A stretch of 64,000 nucleotides of DNA from Patescibacteria group bacterium. GTDB taxonomy: Bacteria; Patescibacteriota; Patescibacteriia; UBA11705; DATKZF01. The notes under the pieces were generated by a model, which searched no databases, had not been told where the DNA came from, and worked only from the letters and a program-made list of their open reading frames with translations. The position numbers and the translations under genes were made by a program. Below, in pieces: positions 1,984 through 63,665 of this stretch. Position 1 is the first letter of the stretch. Every line of letters begins with the position of its first letter. The stretch is taken from assembly GCA_049319825.1 (NCBI GenBank), contig JBMORT010000006.1, positions 80,012 through 144,011 on the forward strand. Reading direction: 5' to 3'.

Positions 1984-3174
1984 ATGGCAGAAACATTTGA
2001 TAGATCAAAACCACACGTCAATGTGGGCACTATCGGTCACGTCGACCACGGTAAAACTACTTTAACAGCGGCTATTTTAAAAGTATTGGCCGCTCGAGGA
2101 CTTGGCGCTCAGGAAATGAGCGTTGATGAAATCGATAAAGCGCCGGAAGAGAAAGAAAGGGGCATTACCATTTCCACCTCTCACGTCGAATATGAAACGG
2201 AAAAGAGGCACTATGCTCACGTCGACTGCCCGGGACATGCGGACTATGTTAAAAACATGATTACGGGCGCGGCTCAAATGGACGGAGCGATTTTGGTCGT
2301 TTCGGCCACTGATGGCCCGATGCCTCAGACTCGAGAGCACATTTTGCTGGCCAGACAGGTTGGCGTGCCTTACATTGTCGTCTTTTTGAACAAAGTTGAC
2401 ATGGTTCAAGAAAAGGAATTAATCGATTTGGTTGAGGAAGAAGTCAGAGATTTATTGAAAAAATATGAATTTCCAGGCGATGAGACTCCGATCATCCGCG
2501 GGTCAGCGTTAAAAGCGCTCGAGAATCCGGCAGATGAGGAAGCTTCCAAGCCGATCATGGAATTATTGAATGCTTTGGATACATACGTTCCGGTTCCTCA
2601 AAGAGATGTCGATAAACCGTTTTTGATGCCGATCGAAGATATTTTTACCATTGAAGGACGAGGCACGGTAGTGACCGGCAGAATCGAACGAGGCATGGTG
2701 AAAGTCAATGATGAAGTGGAAATTATCGGCTTAAAAGATACTCAAAAAACAGTTGTCACCGGCGTGGAAATGTTTAAGAAAACATTAAACGAGGGTCAGG
2801 CCGGCGATAATGCGGGTATCTTACTTCGAGGCTTAAAAAAGGAAGATGTGGAAAGAGGCCAAGTATTGGCCAAGCCGGGCAGTGTTACTCCTCATACCGA
2901 ATTTTCCGCGGAAGTGTATGTTTTGACCAAAGATGAAGGTGGACGACACAAACCGTTTTTTAAAGGTTATAAACCACAGTTTTATATCAGAACCACGGAT
3001 GTGACCGGAGAAGTGACTTTACCGGAAGGAACCGAAATGGTAATGCCGGGCGACACCGTCACTTTCCAGGTTAAATTGATTGTACCGGTTGCCCTTGAAG
3101 AGCAGCAGCGATTGGCCATTCGAGAAGGCGGCAAAACTATTGGCGCCGGAGTGGTAACGAAAATCATAAAGTAA
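1984..3174 (+). CDS. tuf: Elongation factor Tu
   Basis: [18 protein letters not shown] and NKVD GTPase motifs; 396 aa full length. Confidence 0.97.
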
Positions 3175-17947: not shown

Positions 17948-18024
17948 TGGTGGGTGCGGATGGACTTGAACCATCGACCCCAACGTTATAAGCGTTGTGC
18001 TCTAACCAACTGAGCTACGCACCC
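17948..18024 (-). tRNA. tRNA with anticodon UAU (Ile, reading AUA)
   Basis: Reverse complement folds with acceptor GGGTGCG, anticodon stem CAACG/CGTTG, loop CTTATAA, T-loop TTCAAGT, encoded CCA. Confidence 0.72.
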
Positions 18025-49829: not shown

Positions 49830-49935
49830 AGTTGACCCCGATGCTAATATACGAATTGATACTAATGATACTAATGATACTAATATCGCTTTATTCGTAT
49901 AATTCGCATGCATTCGTATATTCGCATCGCTTGCT

Positions 49936-50406
49936 ATGTGCGCCGGATTTGCAATCTATTATGAAAAATTAAAAAAAGCTCAGGTGAAAAAGTGCTTTAC
50001 TGACACCGAGCTTGAGAAATTCAAAAAGGGCGATGAGCTCGAATTTTATTTTTGGCAGAAAAAGCCCTGCGTGCCGATCGAGGAAAACGGCAAAGTTAAT
50101 CTATATGAATGGGGCAATAGAAACAATAAAGAATTGAAAATGCCAAAGACCGGCTGGTGCCGCGCCGAGAGCTTGGCTTCCGGAAAGTGGGATTGGCTCA
50201 AGCCAAAAATTGTGCATGTGCCGGCCACGCGCGGATTTGAAAAGAAAAAGTGGTTCAGGACGCCCAAAGGAATCGAGGCGGTCCTGGCCCGGCAGGGCAA
50301 AGAGAAAAAAGTATATATTTTGACTGAGCCGTCATCCGGTTTTTATTCAAAGTTGACTGGGCATGATAGAATGCCGGTTGGTGATATTAAAGAGATTATA
50401 GAGTGA
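49936..50406 (+). CDS. SOS-response-associated peptidase (SRAP/YedK/HMCES) family protein, short form
   Basis: Begins MC(A)GF (Cys2 nucleophile position) and carries a C-terminal HDRMPV motif. Confidence 0.65.
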   Translation: MCAGFAIYYEKLKKAQVKKCFTDTELEKFKKGDELEFYFWQKKPCVPIEENGKVNLYEWGNRNNKELKMPKTGWCRAESLASGKWDWLKPKIVHVPATRGFEKKKWFRTPKGIEAVLARQGKEKKVYILTEPSSGFYSKLTGHDRMPVGDIKEIIE

Positions 50407-50438
50407 AAAATATACGTCAAGCGTTTTATTTAATAAAG

Positions 50439-50466
50439 CTCGGCCCAAGGCCGAGTTGTTCTTTTT
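50439..50466 (+). terminator. Intrinsic terminator after the SRAP-like gene
   Basis: CTCGGCC-caag-GCCGAG followed by a T-rich run. Confidence 0.5.
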
Positions 50467-50730
50467 GTAACCAAAAAGAACCAAAAAGTTTTGGGGGGCC
50501 TCGAATGCGTGGCGACGTTTGAGTTTATATATCGCGCCTTGGGCAACGATGCCCCCCAACCCCTCGGTGCTTGTGGATTTTTTGTAGCGATGATGTTATA
50601 CCGCACGATCGGATGCCGGTGGGCGAGGCTGAGTGTTATAGGCAGTAGGCAATAGGCAGTAGCCTGTTGCGTTACTTTTGCCTTGTGCCCGCTGCCTCAG
50701 AATGAGTTGAATTTTCAGCTTTTTTTTAGT

Positions 50731-50759
50731 TTGACAAAAGTTAATTTTAAGGGTAAACT
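50731..50759 (+). promoter_or_regulatory. Sigma70-like promoter (TTGACA-17-TAAACT)
   Basis: Consensus -35, 17-nt spacer, followed by an AAGGAGGG RBS and the ATG at 50798. Confidence 0.5.
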
Positions 50760-50797
50760 CCAATATCCGCAACAACAATGGCAAGGAGGGCGTTGTT

Positions 50798-51526
50798 ATG
50801 GATGCTCCGCTTCCGTTGAAGATTTTAGCCGCGGCATTGCTTATATCGCTTTTTATTGGGTTCATGCTGCTTTCCATTAAGGAACAAAGAAAAAAGGATG
50901 CCCAGGCAGTTGAACAGAGTTCTGATGCTGGTCGGGCAGACGTTGTCAGCCAAGGCCCTGCCGATAATCCGATCGATTACGGCATGACGTATCCGCGGCC
51001 AACAGAGGAAAACATCAAAGCTGCCGAGGCCAGGGCTCGTCGTGTAGCGGCCGCGATCGAATACACGCGCCAGCACGGGGGAGAGGTTCCTCGCGGTGTA
51101 AACGACAACGACTATAGCCCATTGGCGGCCTATCCAATACCGCCTGACGTCAGCTCTATGGATCCGGAAGTCAGTTATGGCACGAATCTGGCCGGCAAGG
51201 TGATCCATGGTCCAAGAGAGTTCGATGGAAGTTTGCTCGGTCTGCGCTATCTTGTAGTGCAGCGACTGGATAATCAGGAAAAGGTAGCGGTTCTCTGCGA
51301 TGATTCGTACAAAGTTCCCTACAACAACCTGCTGGAATTCCAGGTGATTTTCATCAGCAACCGTCAGGCCACGATCTACATCGTCATCAACGATGACCCG
51401 AGTCTGCCGACCGAGGCGTTGGCCGGGCCCGGGCAGATTCTGCGGCCGCCTCCGCCGGACATTCAGTATCCGACCGAGGCCATGCCCGACGTCGTACAAC
51501 CCAAAGACGTACAAAGCGCGGAATAA
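50798..51526 (+). CDS. Membrane-anchored hypothetical protein (242 aa); high-GC gene
   Basis: N-terminal TM helix, Pro-rich C-terminus. The GC content is markedly above that of the surrounding genes. Confidence 0.7.
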   Translation: MDAPLPLKILAAALLISLFIGFMLLSIKEQRKKDAQAVEQSSDAGRADVVSQGPADNPIDYGMTYPRPTEENIKAAEARARRVAAAIEYTRQHGGEVPRGVNDNDYSPLAAYPIPPDVSSMDPEVSYGTNLAGKVIHGPREFDGSLLGLRYLVVQRLDNQEKVAVLCDDSYKVPYNNLLEFQVIFISNRQATIYIVINDDPSLPTEALAGPGQILRPPPPDIQYPTEAMPDVVQPKDVQSAE

Positions 51527-51539
51527 AGTTCTTGCGCTT

Positions 51540-51577
51540 GCCGTCCGTAGTTTTATAAAAAAGGACGGCTTTTTTTA
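51540..51577 (+). terminator. Intrinsic terminator
   Basis: GCCGTCC...GGACGGC stem followed by T7. Confidence 0.6.
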
Positions 51578-51722
51578 TTTTTCAAAAAAGGAAAAATATG
51601 GTAAAATAATATTTAAGAAGGCTTAAGGAGGCGTAAGAGGTAAAGAAGGCAAATGGGGCAGAGAAGGCTTTCTTATAATATTTTTTTTATGGCGAAGAAA
51701 TTGAAATTTTTGAATCTCGTTA

Positions 51723-51778
51723 TTGACTTACTTTGACAGCGAAGTTAACATATGTTAACATTAAATTAGTGAGTTAAC
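51723..51778 (+). promoter_or_regulatory. Promoter with a 16-bp perfect palindromic operator (GTTAACATATGTTAAC) upstream of the HTH-Doc pair
   Basis: TTGACT/TTGACA -35 candidates; the palindrome overlaps the -10 region; a third GTTAAC half-site at 51773. Confidence 0.5.
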
Positions 51779-51785
51779 GGAAAAT

Positions 51786-52058
51786 ATGCCTCCAAAAACA
51801 ATAATAACCAAGGATTTTTATTCTGTCAGTGAGTTGGCTGATTTATTGGGAATCAGTCGGATTGCCGTATTTAAAAAAATTCAAAAAGGCCAAATTAAAG
51901 CATTTAAAATTGGCAGAAATTATGTAATTCCCAAAAAGGAATTAGGAGCGGTGCTTGGAGTTGTTCTTAGTGAGAAGGATAAGGCAATGATCGATAAAGC
52001 AATAATGAAGACCATTAAAGAATATGGAGAAACTCTAAAATTATTGGGGGCTGAATAA
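51786..52058 (+). CDS. Excisionase-family (HTH_17) DNA-binding protein, putative antitoxin
   Basis: YSVSELADLLGISRIAVFKKIQKG HTH; its stop abuts the start of the Doc-family gene. Confidence 0.75.
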   Translation: MPPKTIITKDFYSVSELADLLGISRIAVFKKIQKGQIKAFKIGRNYVIPKKELGAVLGVVLSEKDKAMIDKAIMKTIKEYGETLKLLGAE

Positions 52059-52490
52059 ATGATTCATATGAGAAAGATTACCATCGCTGAAGTTAAATAC
52101 CTATCGTTTAAATTGGCAAAAGAGTCAATGAGCTTTAATGAACCGATCCCTGATTTTTCAACCCGTTTTCCGGAAGTTCTTGAAAGTTGTTTGATTACTC
52201 CGTTTCAGACTTTTCAAAAAAAATCGATGTATCGAGGGCAAATTAAAAAGGCCGCCGTTTTATTTTACCTAATGGTTAAAAATCATCCGTTCCAGAACGG
52301 AAACAAAAGAATAGCGACAACAACCTTGCTTGTTTTTTTGTATATGAATAATAAATGGTTAAAAGTTGACAGCAGAGAGTTGTATAATTTTGCCGTTTGG
52401 GTGGCCGAAAGCCCGGCTTCATTAAAAGACGAGGTTGTGTTAGCGGTAGAGAAATTCGTTAAAAAAAATATTGTTGTTATGAAAAAATAA
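52059..52490 (+). CDS. doc: Fic/Doc-family toxin (death-on-curing type)
   Basis: HPFQNGNKR matches the Doc variant of the Fic motif HxFx(D/N)GNKR. Confidence 0.8.
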   Translation: MIHMRKITIAEVKYLSFKLAKESMSFNEPIPDFSTRFPEVLESCLITPFQTFQKKSMYRGQIKKAAVLFYLMVKNHPFQNGNKRIATTTLLVFLYMNNKWLKVDSRELYNFAVWVAESPASLKDEVVLAVEKFVKKNIVVMKK

Positions 52491-52492
52491 AT

Positions 52493-54841
52493 ATGAAATT
52501 CAAATTCGTTAAATTTTTTAATGAAATTACAAAAAAGCACCAGCCACTCGTCGGCGGCAAGAACGCCATGCTGGGTGATATGTACAATAAATTAAAAAGC
52601 GCGGGCATTCCCGTGCCTGACGGCTTTGTTTTCACTGCCAAGGGTTATCAGGAATTTTTGAAATTTAATAAGCTTGAAAATAAAATCAAAAAAACTTTGC
52701 GCGGGCTTGACGTTGAAAACGCGCAGGATCTCGAGACTCGGGGAAAAGCCGTTCGCGAGCTGATCGAAGGCGGAAATTTTTCCGAAAAAATAAAAGAAGA
52801 GATAAAAGTCGCTTATCAGAAGCTGAGCAAGCATTATCAGCAAACGGCAACCGATGTGGCGGTTCGATCTTCGGCGACCGCGGAAGATTTGCCGACCGCT
52901 TCTTTTGCCGGCCAGCTCGAATCATATTTAAACGTTCGAGGAATTGAAAATCTTTTGTGGACAATAAAAAAATGCATGGCTTCTTTATATACTGACCGCG
53001 CGATTTCATACAGGAAAGACAAAGGCTTTCCCATGGCCGGCATTTCAATTTCAGTCGGGATACAGAAGATGGTCAGAAGCGACAAAGCCGCATCAGGAGT
53101 AATGTTTACCCTGGAAACGGAAAGCGGATTTAGAAATTTGGTAACGATCAATGCCGGGCTAGGGCTGGGTGAGAACGTGGTTAAGGGCAGGATCGATCCG
53201 GATGAATATTATATTTTCAAATCAACTTTGGAAAAAGGATTCAGGCCCATTATCAAAAAGAAGCTGGGATTAAAGCAGCTGAAGCTGGTTTATAAAGGAG
53301 ATCGCACCGTTAATCTTAGGACGCCGGCCAATGAGAAAAATCAGCTGGCCCTGAGCGACGCGGAAATTTTGAAATTGGCCAGATGGGGAATGATTATTGA
53401 AAAGCAGTATAAAATGCCCATGGACATGGAATGGGCCAAAGACGGCATTCAAAATAAGCTTTATATTGTCCAGGCCAGGCCGGAAACAGTGCATTCGGCT
53501 GAGAATAGAAATGTTTTATATCAATATCGCCTGAAAGCGATTCCGGCCAAGCAGTTGCTTTACGGCATTGCCATTGGCAATAATATCGGCCAGGGACCGG
53601 TTAAAGTGATTGAAAACGTCAGCCAGCTCAAAAAGTTGAAGCAAGGCGATGTACTGGTGACTAAAATGACAGATCCAGCCTGGGAGCCGGCCATGAAAAT
53701 AGCATCGGCCATCGTCACTGACAGCGGCGGCCGCACCTGCCATGCGGCGATCGTAGCTCGCGAGCTGGGGATCCCGGCATTGGTTGGTACAAAAAATTCA
53801 ACAAAAGTTTTAAATACAGGCAGAAAAGTTACGGTTGATTGCTCGCAAGGAGTTGAGGGCTTTGTTTATCAGGGATTATTGCCTTATAAAAAGATAAAAG
53901 TCAGTTTGGAAAAGACGAAAATGCCAAGAACTCAGGTAATGATGAACGTTGGCAATCCGGATATTGTTTTTGCTTCTTCTTTTATTCCCAATCAAGGCGT
54001 TGGCCTCGCGCGTGAGGAGTTTATTATCAGCGATTATATAAAGATCCATCCGCTGGCGTTGATTAATTTTGGAAAGCTCGAACCGGACTTGAAAAATAAA
54101 ATCGAGAAATTAACTCCGCATTATTCGAATAAAAAACAATTTTATGTTGACAAGCTGGCAGAGGGGATCGGCCAGATAGCGGCGGCTTTCTATCCGAAAG
54201 AAGTCATTGTCCGTTTCTCAGACTTCAAGACAAATGAATACCGGTCGCTGGTCGGCGGAGAGCGATATGAGCCGCATGAGGCGAATCCAATGCTCGGCTG
54301 GCGCGGCGCGGCGCGATACTATGATCCTAAATTCAAGCCGGCGTTTATTCTGGAATGCCGGGCGATAAAAAAGGTAATTAAAGAATTTGGTTTGAATAAT
54401 ATTAAAGTAATGGTCCCATTTTGCCGGACAGCAGGGGAGGGGCGAAAAGTTTTACAAATAATTAAAGAACAGGGCTTGAAAAAATTGCGAGTCGAAGTTT
54501 ATGTCATGGTGGAAATTCCGAGCAATGTTTTAGAAGCCGCTGAATTCGCCAAAATTTTTGACGGCTTCAGCATCGGCTCGAATGATTTGACGCAATTGAT
54601 TTTGGGCGTTGACCGCGATTCAGAGTTTGTTCAGCATGTTTATAATGAAAAAGATCCCGCGGTTTTAAAAATGATCGGCGAGGTGATTAAAGTCGCCAAG
54701 TCGAAAAAGAAGAAAATCGGCATTTGCGGCCAAGCGCCGAGCGATTTTCCGGATTTCGCCCGCTGGCTGGTGAAAAATAAAATTGACAGCATGTCTTTGA
54801 ATCCGGATTCGGTGACGAAGACAATCGAAAGGTTGAAATAA
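52493..54841 (+). CDS. ppsA: Phosphoenolpyruvate synthase (pyruvate, water dikinase)
   Basis: N-terminal PPDK_N ATP-grasp, mobile phospho-His domain (GGRTCHAAIVARELGIPALVG), C-terminal PEP-utilizing TIM barrel; 782 aa. Confidence 0.9.
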   Translation: MKFKFVKFFNEITKKHQPLVGGKNAMLGDMYNKLKSAGIPVPDGFVFTAKGYQEFLKFNKLENKIKKTLRGLDVENAQDLETRGKAVRELIEGGNFSEKIKEEIKVAYQKLSKHYQQTATDVAVRSSATAEDLPTASFAGQLESYLNVRGIENLLWTIKKCMASLYTDRAISYRKDKGFPMAGISISVGIQKMVRSDKAASGVMFTLETESGFRNLVTINAGLGLGENVVKGRIDPDEYYIFKSTLEKGFRPIIKKKLGLKQLKLVYKGDRTVNLRTPANEKNQLALSDAEILKLARWGMIIEKQYKMPMDMEWAKDGIQNKLYIVQARPETVHSAENRNVLYQYRLKAIPAKQLLYGIAIGNNIGQGPVKVIENVSQLKKLKQGDVLVTKMTDPAWEPAMKIASAIVTDSGGRTCHAAIVARELGIPALVGTKNSTKVLNTGRKVTVDCSQGVEGFVYQGLLPYKKIKVSLEKTKMPRTQVMMNVGNPDIVFASSFIPNQGVGLAREEFIISDYIKIHPLALINFGKLEPDLKNKIEKLTPHYSNKKQFYVDKLAEGIGQIAAAFYPKEVIVRFSDFKTNEYRSLVGGERYEPHEANPMLGWRGAARYYDPKFKPAFILECRAIKKVIKEFGLNNIKVMVPFCRTAGEGRKVLQIIKEQGLKKLRVEVYVMVEIPSNVLEAAEFAKIFDGFSIGSNDLTQLILGVDRDSEFVQHVYNEKDPAVLKMIGEVIKVAKSKKKKIGICGQAPSDFPDFARWLVKNKIDSMSLNPDSVTKTIERLK

Positions 54842-63580: not shown

Positions 63581-63665
63581 GCCGGCCATGGGCGCGCGGT
63601 GCGCGCGTAGGGGCAGGTCGCGACCGGCCCCTACCATCCGCCGCGGCGGATGCGCCATGGCCGGC
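63581..63665. repeat. GC-rich (~80% GC) nested palindromic element
   Basis: Outer 11-bp inverted repeat GCCGGCCATGG/CCATGGCCGGC encloses three internal perfect palindromes. Confidence 0.8.

Follow-up and report, generated by a model that had tools for sequence, protein, structure and literature searches.

The window analysed here is a 64-kb stretch of DNA from an uncultured Patescibacteria bacterium, and all coordinates are those of the window. It includes a gene for a Doc-family Fic protein, preceded by a gene for a small protein with an HTH_17 DNA-binding domain and followed by ppsA, which predicts a phosphoenolpyruvate (PEP) synthase. The locus appears to be a mobile type II toxin-antitoxin (TA) cassette that belongs to a widespread, experimentally uncharacterised subfamily and that captured ppsA by insertion, a reading to which we assign a probability of approximately 0.75. 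We read it as a TA module in which the kind of toxin is known and the predicted type of antitoxin and operator is undescribed, together with an apparently clear case of operon capture.

Predicted toxin and antitoxin, and their distribution

The toxin gene (52059..52490, + strand) predicts a protein of 143 aa from the ATG at 52059, or of 140 aa from the ATG at 52068 (M4). The second ATG is favoured by NCBI and by the family alignment, and the first is also possible. The product matches Pfam Fic (PF02661; E = 1.2e-9, 39.4 bits, cutoff 24) and NCBIfam TIGR01550 DOC_P1, 'death-on-curing family toxin' (E = 4.2e-13, 49.5 bits, cutoff 38.65). A preliminary description of this DNA had proposed a Doc-type Fic toxin carrying HPFQNGNKR and had stated that the absence of a Fic/Doc profile match would refute it, and both matches to the 52059-52490 open reading frame (ORF) exceed the curated cutoffs. 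The motif itself (nt 52284-52310, residues 76-84) conforms to HxFx(D/N)(A/G)NKR, the Doc type with Lys preceding Arg. In P1 Doc this motif reads HIFNDANKR. Residues H76, F78, N80, G81, N82, K83 and R84 are invariant in 25 relatives, and the subfamily also has its own conserved N-terminal signature, EPIPDFSTRFPNILESC. The codons for HPFQNGN (52286-52301) form an imperfect palindrome, TCCGTTCCAGAACGGA, that was picked up on the minus strand by the terminator scan and is probably a by-product of the conserved motif.

The five best Foldseek matches of the toxin model in the PDB are all to P1 Doc (probability 0.99-1.0, TM score 0.52-0.61), with 20-22% identity to P1 Doc in the fold alignments, and the model, with a mean predicted local distance difference test (pLDDT) score of 66, has the all-helical fold of the Doc/Fic proteins. 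A profile of the toxin family matches the Doc protein of Enterococcus faecalis (9vzc) with E = 7.5e-10, and the single-sequence phmmer match between the window toxin and E. faecalis Doc is weak (E = 3e-4). By each criterion checked, namely profiles, motif and predicted fold, the toxin belongs to the Doc family. It would be expected to phosphorylate the conserved Thr of EF-Tu, and this residue is retained, within GGKTIGAG, in the EF-Tu encoded in the window (1984-3174). That tuf is also in this window, as the preliminary description had pointed out, carries no information because EF-Tu is universal. In the public annotation the toxin is already a 'death-on-curing family toxin' and its partner a 'helix-turn-helix domain-containing protein', and an exact look-up of the window toxin sequence returned no recorded gene.

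The putative antitoxin gene (51786..52058, + strand) predicts a protein of 90 aa, and its TAA stop codon (52056-58) abuts the toxin ATG at 52059. The protein matches Pfam HTH_17 (PF12728; E = 8.1e-9, 36.1 bits, cutoff 27) and TIGR01764 'excise', 'excisionase family DNA-binding protein' (E = 3.1e-9, 37 bits, cutoff 28.8). Both the 90-aa HTH_17 antitoxin and the abutting gene boundary are thus as they had been described. In the AlphaFold 2 (AF2) model (pLDDT 81), a MerR/Xis-like winged helix-turn-helix (HTH) occupies residues 11-49 in a beta-alpha-alpha-beta-beta order (elements E11-13, H14-21, H25-33, E40-42 and E45-49), followed by a short helix at residues 50-57 and a long C-terminal helix at residues 63-89 that ends in KEYGETLKLLG. 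The nearest folds to the DNA-binding part are those of BldC (6amk, 6ama), the Xis protein of mycobacteriophage Pukovnik (4j2n), a phage P2 DNA-binding protein (4lhf) and the MerR-family protein NmlR, the BldC and Xis matches giving TM scores to the target of 0.65-0.82 over approximately 50 residues. The C-terminal motif KEYGETLKLLG is near-invariant in 41 relatives, and by analogy with the C-terminal helix of Phd, the helix that carries it would be the toxin-binding, neutralising element. No match of the 90-aa protein to Phd/YefM was found in the profile searches or in the PDB sequence and profile searches, and a canonical Phd-Doc module was ruled out on the grounds that the antitoxin matches HTH_17 and excise only.

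The toxin protein search returned 5,710 clusters, hence at least 5,700, and the best 120 are all 138-154 aa long, 65-76% identical to the window toxin and drawn from many phyla. In a scan of species-representative genomes, at least 581 genomes, again from many phyla, encode relatives with 60-71% toxin identity. The hosts include Patescibacteria, Omnitrophota, Planctomycetota, Acidobacteriota, Desulfobacterota, delta- and gammaproteobacteria, Clostridia, Elusimicrobia and others, and a toxin identity of 63-76% across phyla is unusually high conservation. The comparative sample consisted of the 80 top-ranked genome loci, all of which are in metagenome-assembled genomes (MAGs) or single-cell assemblies, and members of the subfamily appear to occur almost only in uncultured lineages.

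At each of the 85 loci for which sequence upstream of the Doc gene is available, the gene directly preceding it encodes an antitoxin homolog (43-69% identity), the aligned segments being 0-24 nt apart, and at the sole locus without one the toxin is 36 nt from the end of the contig. The small antitoxin gene immediately upstream on the same strand that is typical of type II TA systems is therefore present at 85 of 85 loci, and the gene calls agree. The second feature of this type, a DNA-binding antitoxin with a cognate operator over its own promoter, is predicted from the winged HTH and a conserved array of boxes described below. The distribution is that of a mobile, patchy element, which occurs in many phyla, in unrelated neighbourhoods, and is present or absent among close relatives of the window's ppsA. 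The next gene runs in the same direction as the TA pair at 33 loci and against it at 30, the gap being ≤30 nt in 10. On these counts, tight co-orientation with the downstream gene was rejected as a family trait. Comparison of the family loci revealed nothing conserved past the toxin stop codon. A scan of IMG/VR with the toxin alignment returned no relative, and in plasmid and phage collections the Doc homologs are <37% identical, have Phd or AbrB partners and include no close homolog. Evidence that the subfamily rides on known plasmids or phages was thus not found in these three sources. Downstream of a related TA pair (L087, 2490-4067; recovered loci are designated L with a number), a GTP cyclohydrolase I gene contains an intein with Intein_splicing, Hint and LAGLIDADG matches.

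Predicted cassette promoter and operator

A predicted promoter precedes the antitoxin gene (51733..51761, + strand). It consists of a -35 element TTGACA (51733-38), a 17-nt spacer and a TG-extended -10 element TAACAT (51756-61), with 10 of 12 matches and the TG, and the geometry TTGAC-N17-TAAC(A/C)T recurs in other Patescibacteria loci. A perfect 16-bp palindrome, GTTAACATATGTTAAC (51744..51759, unstranded), spans the spacer and the -10 element, and a further GTTAAC (51773..51778, unstranded) is located 19 bp past its second half and 8 nt before the antitoxin ATG. Both elements had been reported in the preliminary description, which took the palindrome to be the operator of the antitoxin. The palindrome is not significant alone, as shuffling the 64 kb gave a mean of 1.07 perfect 16-bp palindromes and two were observed; its significance must come from elsewhere because chance alone yields about one. 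The other perfect palindrome in the window is the GC-rich ATCCGCCGCGGCGGAT at 63636-63651.

Three of the 10 GTTAAC sites in the window lie within 35 bp at the operator. Across 80 other distinct loci, GTTAAC has a density of 16.6 per kb in the 160-nt segment ahead of the antitoxin gene and of 0.12 per kb in the remaining 600 kb, an approximately 140-fold difference. The arrangement GTTAAC-N4-GTTAAC with no more than one mismatch was detected in 66 of 81 distinct upstream regions, and the spacing of consecutive boxes is 10, 19 or 18 nt in 42, 59 and 15 cases, respectively. Among the 58 loci with the central pair and enough flanking sequence, a further box is located ~19 bp upstream in 44 and ~19 bp downstream in 53, the latter being box 4 at +28 to +30. 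Position matrices gave TATGTTAACy for boxes 1 and 3 and the reverse complement, rGTTAACAT, for boxes 2 and 4, with centre spacings of 19-10-19; L011 and L024 are examples of loci with all four boxes. As the box orientations alternate, the whole array is two-fold symmetric and on one face of the helix. In the Patescibacteria loci, the TTGAC(A) of the -35 element is between boxes 1 and 2, and the -10 element (TAACaT) is within box 3. This array has the character of a phylogenetic footprint of a predicted repressor site. The operator role proposed for the palindrome has therefore gained from its conservation across phyla and its overlap with the -10 element, but the palindrome is only the central pair, boxes 2 and 3, of a four-box operator, and the GTTAAC downstream of it is box 4. 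The antitoxin relative most similar to the window's (79% identity; L101, 1-175) has no GTTAAC box upstream. It is on a 525-bp contig with 1.15x coverage, which may be chimeric, or the promoter may have been replaced.

Under the mechanism that we propose, the Xis/BldC-like domain of the antitoxin would bind the GTTAAC boxes, probably as a multimer and possibly bridged by the toxin as in P1 Phd-Doc. Since the boxes span the -10 element and the transcript start, their occupancy should silence the cassette promoter. The C-terminal helix of the antitoxin would neutralise a Doc kinase that otherwise phosphorylates EF-Tu. As the operator can be read from comparative data, it offers a precise DNA-binding prediction for an Xis/BldC-like domain.

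Insertion into ppsA

The ppsA gene (52493..54841, + strand; 782 aa; NF005057, 1124 bits) begins 2 nt past the doc stop codon, as had been noted, with a replacement start, ATGAAATTC, and rejoins its original frame at 52502. In relatives that carry ppsA without the TA genes (L094 and L096), the gene starts with ATGGCGAAA(AAA/AGG)TT(G/A)AAATTCGTTAAATTTTTTAATGAA, which predicts an uninterrupted MAK(K/R)LKFVKFFNE. In the window, a remnant of this start is present upstream of the cassette (51689..51736, + strand), where ATGGCGAAGAAATTGAAATT (51689-51708, MAKKLKF) runs into cassette DNA and reaches a TGA stop codon at 51734-36, and the sequence ATGGCGAA... is read as a ppsA fragment. Homology to the TA-less ppsA genes resumes at 52502 (AAATTCGTTAAATTTTTTAATG...), after the new start (alignments A3 and A4). 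Because the start remnant lies upstream and homology resumes at 52502, the cassette is placed at approximately codon 7 of ppsA, and the sequence of the two junctions documents both this insertion and a new ATG that arose after the Doc stop codon. The inserted segment is approximately 793 bp (~51709..52501, + strand), with a GC content of 30-37% versus 45-55% in the flanks, and has AAATT(T/C) repeats on the left (51704-51709) and on the right (52502-52507). The left junction in L099 keeps AAATTCG, and the AAATTC(G) repeats at the junctions suggest a 6-7 bp target duplication.

Inserted within the first codons, the cassette separates ppsA from its native promoter, leader and start codon, which, to judge from the same alignments, are no longer in place. 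The native promoter is recognisable as an extended -10 element, TATGGTAAAAT (51597..51607, + strand; TTTTCA-17-TAAAAT with TG in the promoter scan), that is now ~890 nt upstream of ppsA. The identical 11-mer is found ahead of ppsA in the TA-less L096 and L094, and ahead of the cassette in L002 and L099. The native 5′ leader (51608..51688, + strand) is purine-rich with repeated AAGGCTTAAGG-like units; it can be aligned in L002 and L099 and partly in L094, and is absent in L096, where the leader is only ~15 nt. Folding of the leader in three lineages revealed no significant or shared structure. A riboswitch in the leader was considered and dropped, the Rfam search of 51300-52700 having returned only a sub-threshold lysM-TM7 match (24.9 vs 61.5 bits, E = 0.059) with no fold. 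A 12-mer, AAATTCGTTAAA, occurs at 52452-52463 in the 3′-end of doc (EKFVK) and at 52502-52513 in the resumed ppsA (KFVK), which is probably a coincidence, as the L002 doc copy does not have it. This identity was rejected as a recombination substrate for the same reason and because doc is complete.

Close relatives of ppsA were recovered with their contexts through a protein search and contig look-ups, and a metagenome scan for close relatives gave matches of 51-52% only. The ancestral gene order is pyk-ppsA-permease-glycosyltransferases, and the TA-less L094 (ppsA 76%), L096 (81-83%) and L097 (62% identity) keep the pyk-ppsA synteny and an intact ppsA start; in L097, pyk ends 2 nt before ppsA. 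The junctions seen in the window recur in L001-L004 (ppsA 82%) and in L099/L100, so that the insertion is common to three lineages. None of the 80 genome loci sampled has ppsA adjacent to the TA genes. The earlier expectation that the TA-ppsA arrangement would be conserved in related genomes was therefore not borne out beyond what appears to be one insertion event shared by these three lineages. In the comparison of the window with L002, silent sites have reached saturation (pS, the proportion of synonymous differences, 0.70-0.85). The nonsynonymous divergence (dN) of the antitoxin, toxin and ppsA genes is 0.20, 0.23 and 0.11, respectively, and that of the adjacent permease gene is 0.21. Because dN is low while silent sites are saturated, the antitoxin, toxin and ppsA genes and the operator have long been kept functional in this arrangement, with the three genes under purifying selection. 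With both insertion junctions preserved, along with the promoter and start codon left behind and the repaired gene, the window offers a clean natural example of the way in which a housekeeping gene can be rewired by a selfish cassette that reaches fixation.

The cassette would have been inserted in an ancestor of the lineage, and ppsA would have become its third gene. Transcription of ppsA would then start at the repressible cassette promoter and also, by read-through across the operator, at the old ppsA promoter, so that ppsA expression would be tied to TA autoregulation. A terminator scan and folding found no + strand terminator and no stable hairpin between doc and ppsA, and ppsA is probably co-transcribed with the cassette. 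Co-transcription had been suggested from the 2-nt gap, and the case for it is strengthened by the separation of ppsA from its own promoter, leader and start, although the arrangement is not a family-wide operon. A more speculative extension, which we would not expect to hold but regard as possible, is that PEP synthase output is gated by the toxin:antitoxin ratio, being repressed with the complex on the operator and derepressed on degradation of the antitoxin, and that selection on ppsA anchors the mobile cassette. If true, this would be a natural TA autoregulatory circuit co-opted as a controller of gluconeogenic flux in a reduced-genome symbiont, and the anchoring would explain the intact persistence of the cassette beyond silent-site saturation.

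Several observations weigh against the reading of the locus as a captured TA cassette. The toxin model has pLDDT <50 at residues 23-57 and is unreliable over its N-terminal third, which makes the fold match no better than moderate. Of the four operator boxes, the window lacks box 1 and has boxes 2, 3 and 4. For the whole, experimentally uncharacterised subfamily, toxicity through growth inhibition, kinase activity, EF-Tu as the target, neutralisation by the antitoxin and binding to the operator are predictions. Within the 3′ half of doc is a promoter-like site, TTAAAA-18-TATAAT (52359-52388), from which ppsA could be expressed without control by the operator. The ppsA tree places the TA-less L096 as sister to L002 (200/200 bootstraps) with the window outside both (199/200), and the window TA genes are slightly closer to those of L090 (72%) than to those of L002 (68%) by identity ranking.

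The promoter-like site underlies the main alternative, in which ppsA is functionally independent, being transcribed constitutively from within doc, and its adjacency to the TA genes is a mere insertion scar. We regard this as a serious possibility, if not the expected one. The site is a 10/12 promoter match ~105 nt ahead of the ppsA ATG, L002 has this TATAAT as well, and the strong purifying selection on ppsA implies that reliable expression is required. However, the TATAAT follows from the codons for the invariant L-Y-N-F of the toxin; any AT-rich member would contain it whatever gene comes next, and its conservation therefore carries no information. Moreover, an internal promoter would still lie inside the cassette, and with no terminator between doc and ppsA, read-through transcripts must include ppsA too.

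A different proposal concerns biological function, and is compatible with the mechanism outlined above. The module might serve mainly in anti-phage abortive infection, with the Doc domain triggered by infection, and not in stress or addiction. The toxin matches the C-terminal domain of the PADLOC candidate PDC-S23 (E = 1e-18), and also PDC-S05 and PDC-M59B, the antitoxin weakly matches the HTH of MADS Mad1, and recent literature places many TA systems in defence (PMC13034048). However, the PDC-S23 models are 312-331 residues long and the toxin covers only ~100-140 C-terminal positions, indicating a different architecture, and the neighbourhoods examined have no defence-island context. A predominantly defensive role is improbable on this evidence.

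The position of L096 bears on the number of insertions. As L096 is nested in a TA-bearing clade, a single insertion requires a later precise loss or allele replacement in L096, and recombination between the flanking repeats could yield such a loss. The alternative, in which separate insertions at one ppsA site resulted from site-specific targeting of AAATTCGTTAAA, would account for this tree and for the fact that the TA most similar to the window's is not that of L002; the target also holds a GTTAA half-box, and the antitoxin is excisionase-like. The identity ranking of the TA genes is not decisive between single and multiple insertions. On the other hand, the right junction, AAATAAATATGAAAT(TC/CT), is non-coding and common to the window and L002, and the same holds for TTTGAC..AAGTTAACATATGTTAAC in the left region and for the offsets of the boxes (-42, -32, -13). 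The closest sampled TA to that of L002 is the window's, the cassette has no recombinase gene, and ppsA was seen at none of the 80 other loci. Repeated insertion is on balance quite improbable, and the shared non-coding junctions, the identical box offsets and the L002-window TA pairing favour a single insertion in the common ancestor, without settling the matter.

A dedicated PEP synthase regulator, in which a Doc-like kinase phosphorylates PpsA (cf. PSRP/DUF299) and the HTH protein controls the operon, could be imagined from the tight ppsA linkage kept in three lineages over long divergence and from the general role of Doc-type Fic proteins as protein kinases, but it is highly improbable and largely refuted by the family distribution, as the same module (63-76% toxin identity) is found in more than 80 other loci of many phyla with unrelated neighbours and no ppsA, the downstream orientation elsewhere is random (33 versus 30), close relatives carry ppsA without the module, and the junctions reveal an insertion that disrupted ppsA.

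Other features were noted near this insertion and elsewhere in the window. The pyk-ppsA junction (49830-51530) is an insertion hot spot, with two extra ORFs in the window (49936-50406 and 50798-51526) that have no Pfam matches. The first (156 aa) is frameshifted in L094, and the second (242 aa) is GC-rich (~55%) and corresponds to a 122-aa ORF of L002 at its 3′-end only. An intrinsic terminator of the second ORF (51540..51583, + strand) has the stem GCCGTCC...GGACGGC followed by U7 and a folding energy of -13.5 kcal/mol. In L096 (2261-4532), ppsA is called as two overlapping ORFs of 203 and 567 aa on a 4.7-kb contig, which reflects a frameshift or an assembly error. A tRNA-Ile with the anticodon TAT (UAU) is encoded at 17948-18024 (- strand). 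Bacterial AUA codons are usually read by a lysidine-modified CAU tRNA, and a UAU tRNA-Ile is uncommon.

Relation to known systems

The class I Fic TA systems VbhT-VbhA and FicT-FicA likewise combine a Fic-fold enzyme with a small, separately encoded inhibitory partner, and class I structures (3shg, 5jfz) are among the weaker fold matches of the toxin. However, their toxins carry the GNGR of AMPylating enzymes where the window toxin has the NKR of the Doc type, and their antitoxins have the inhibitory motif (S/T)xxxE(G/N) and no DNA-binding domain. Direct reading of the translation revealed no (S/T)xxxE(G/N) in the 90-aa protein, and a class I module was ruled out on this basis.

Small MerR-like proteins of the BldC/Xis type (6amk, 6ama; 4j2n) are the best structural matches to the DNA-binding domain of the antitoxin. 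Proteins of this type bind closely spaced repeat arrays as cooperative multimers, a mode of binding that resembles the predicted multi-box, helical-phase GTTAAC operator. They differ in having no toxin-binding C-terminal helix and no toxin partner, and in binding direct repeats, whereas the orientation of the boxes alternates here.

In organisation the locus resembles the Phd-Doc modules of P1 (3k33, 3kh2, 3dd7) and of the E. faecalis chromosome (9vzc), whose toxins belong to the same Fic-fold Doc family with the kinase-type HxFx(D/N)(A/G)NKR. These modules are also two-gene operons with the antitoxin gene first, its stop codon beside the toxin start and a palindromic operator in the promoter. 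In P1 Phd-Doc, two operator sites are bound cooperatively with Doc as a bridge (PMC13034048). The difference is in the antitoxin, which in the window is an HTH_17 winged helix with a C-terminal helix in place of Phd/YefM, and in the operator, which is a four-box GTTAAC array.

The predicted MerR-like HTH-PIN pairs (PMC2701414) likewise use a truncated MerR-superfamily HTH without the dimerisation helix as the DNA-binding domain of the antitoxin, and a small extra segment was proposed to contact the toxin (Makarova, Wolf, Koonin 2009, PMC2701414), but the toxin in these pairs is PIN and not Doc. In that survey the partners of Doc are Phd, AbrB/MazE and YhfG, and MerR-like HTH proteins occur only with PIN. 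A second survey (PMC3141249) lists three antitoxin super-families for Doc, and the words 'MerR' and 'excisionase' are absent from its text. Searches of the available literature that combined HTH_17, excisionase or MerR with Doc returned no account of such a pair.

The locus thus defines a large TA subfamily with unusually conserved toxins, whose antitoxin type and operator are not in these comparative surveys (PMC2701414, PMC3141249). If the reading is correct, an HTH_17-Doc pair with a four-box operator is a new, very widespread and unusually conserved TA architecture. Established concepts stand, as antitoxin domain shuffling and chromosomal TA insertion are both well known already. Against this background, the module combines a familiar toxin and TA logic with an antitoxin class and an operator architecture that are undescribed, and the gene capture is well documented by the sequence yet lineage-specific.

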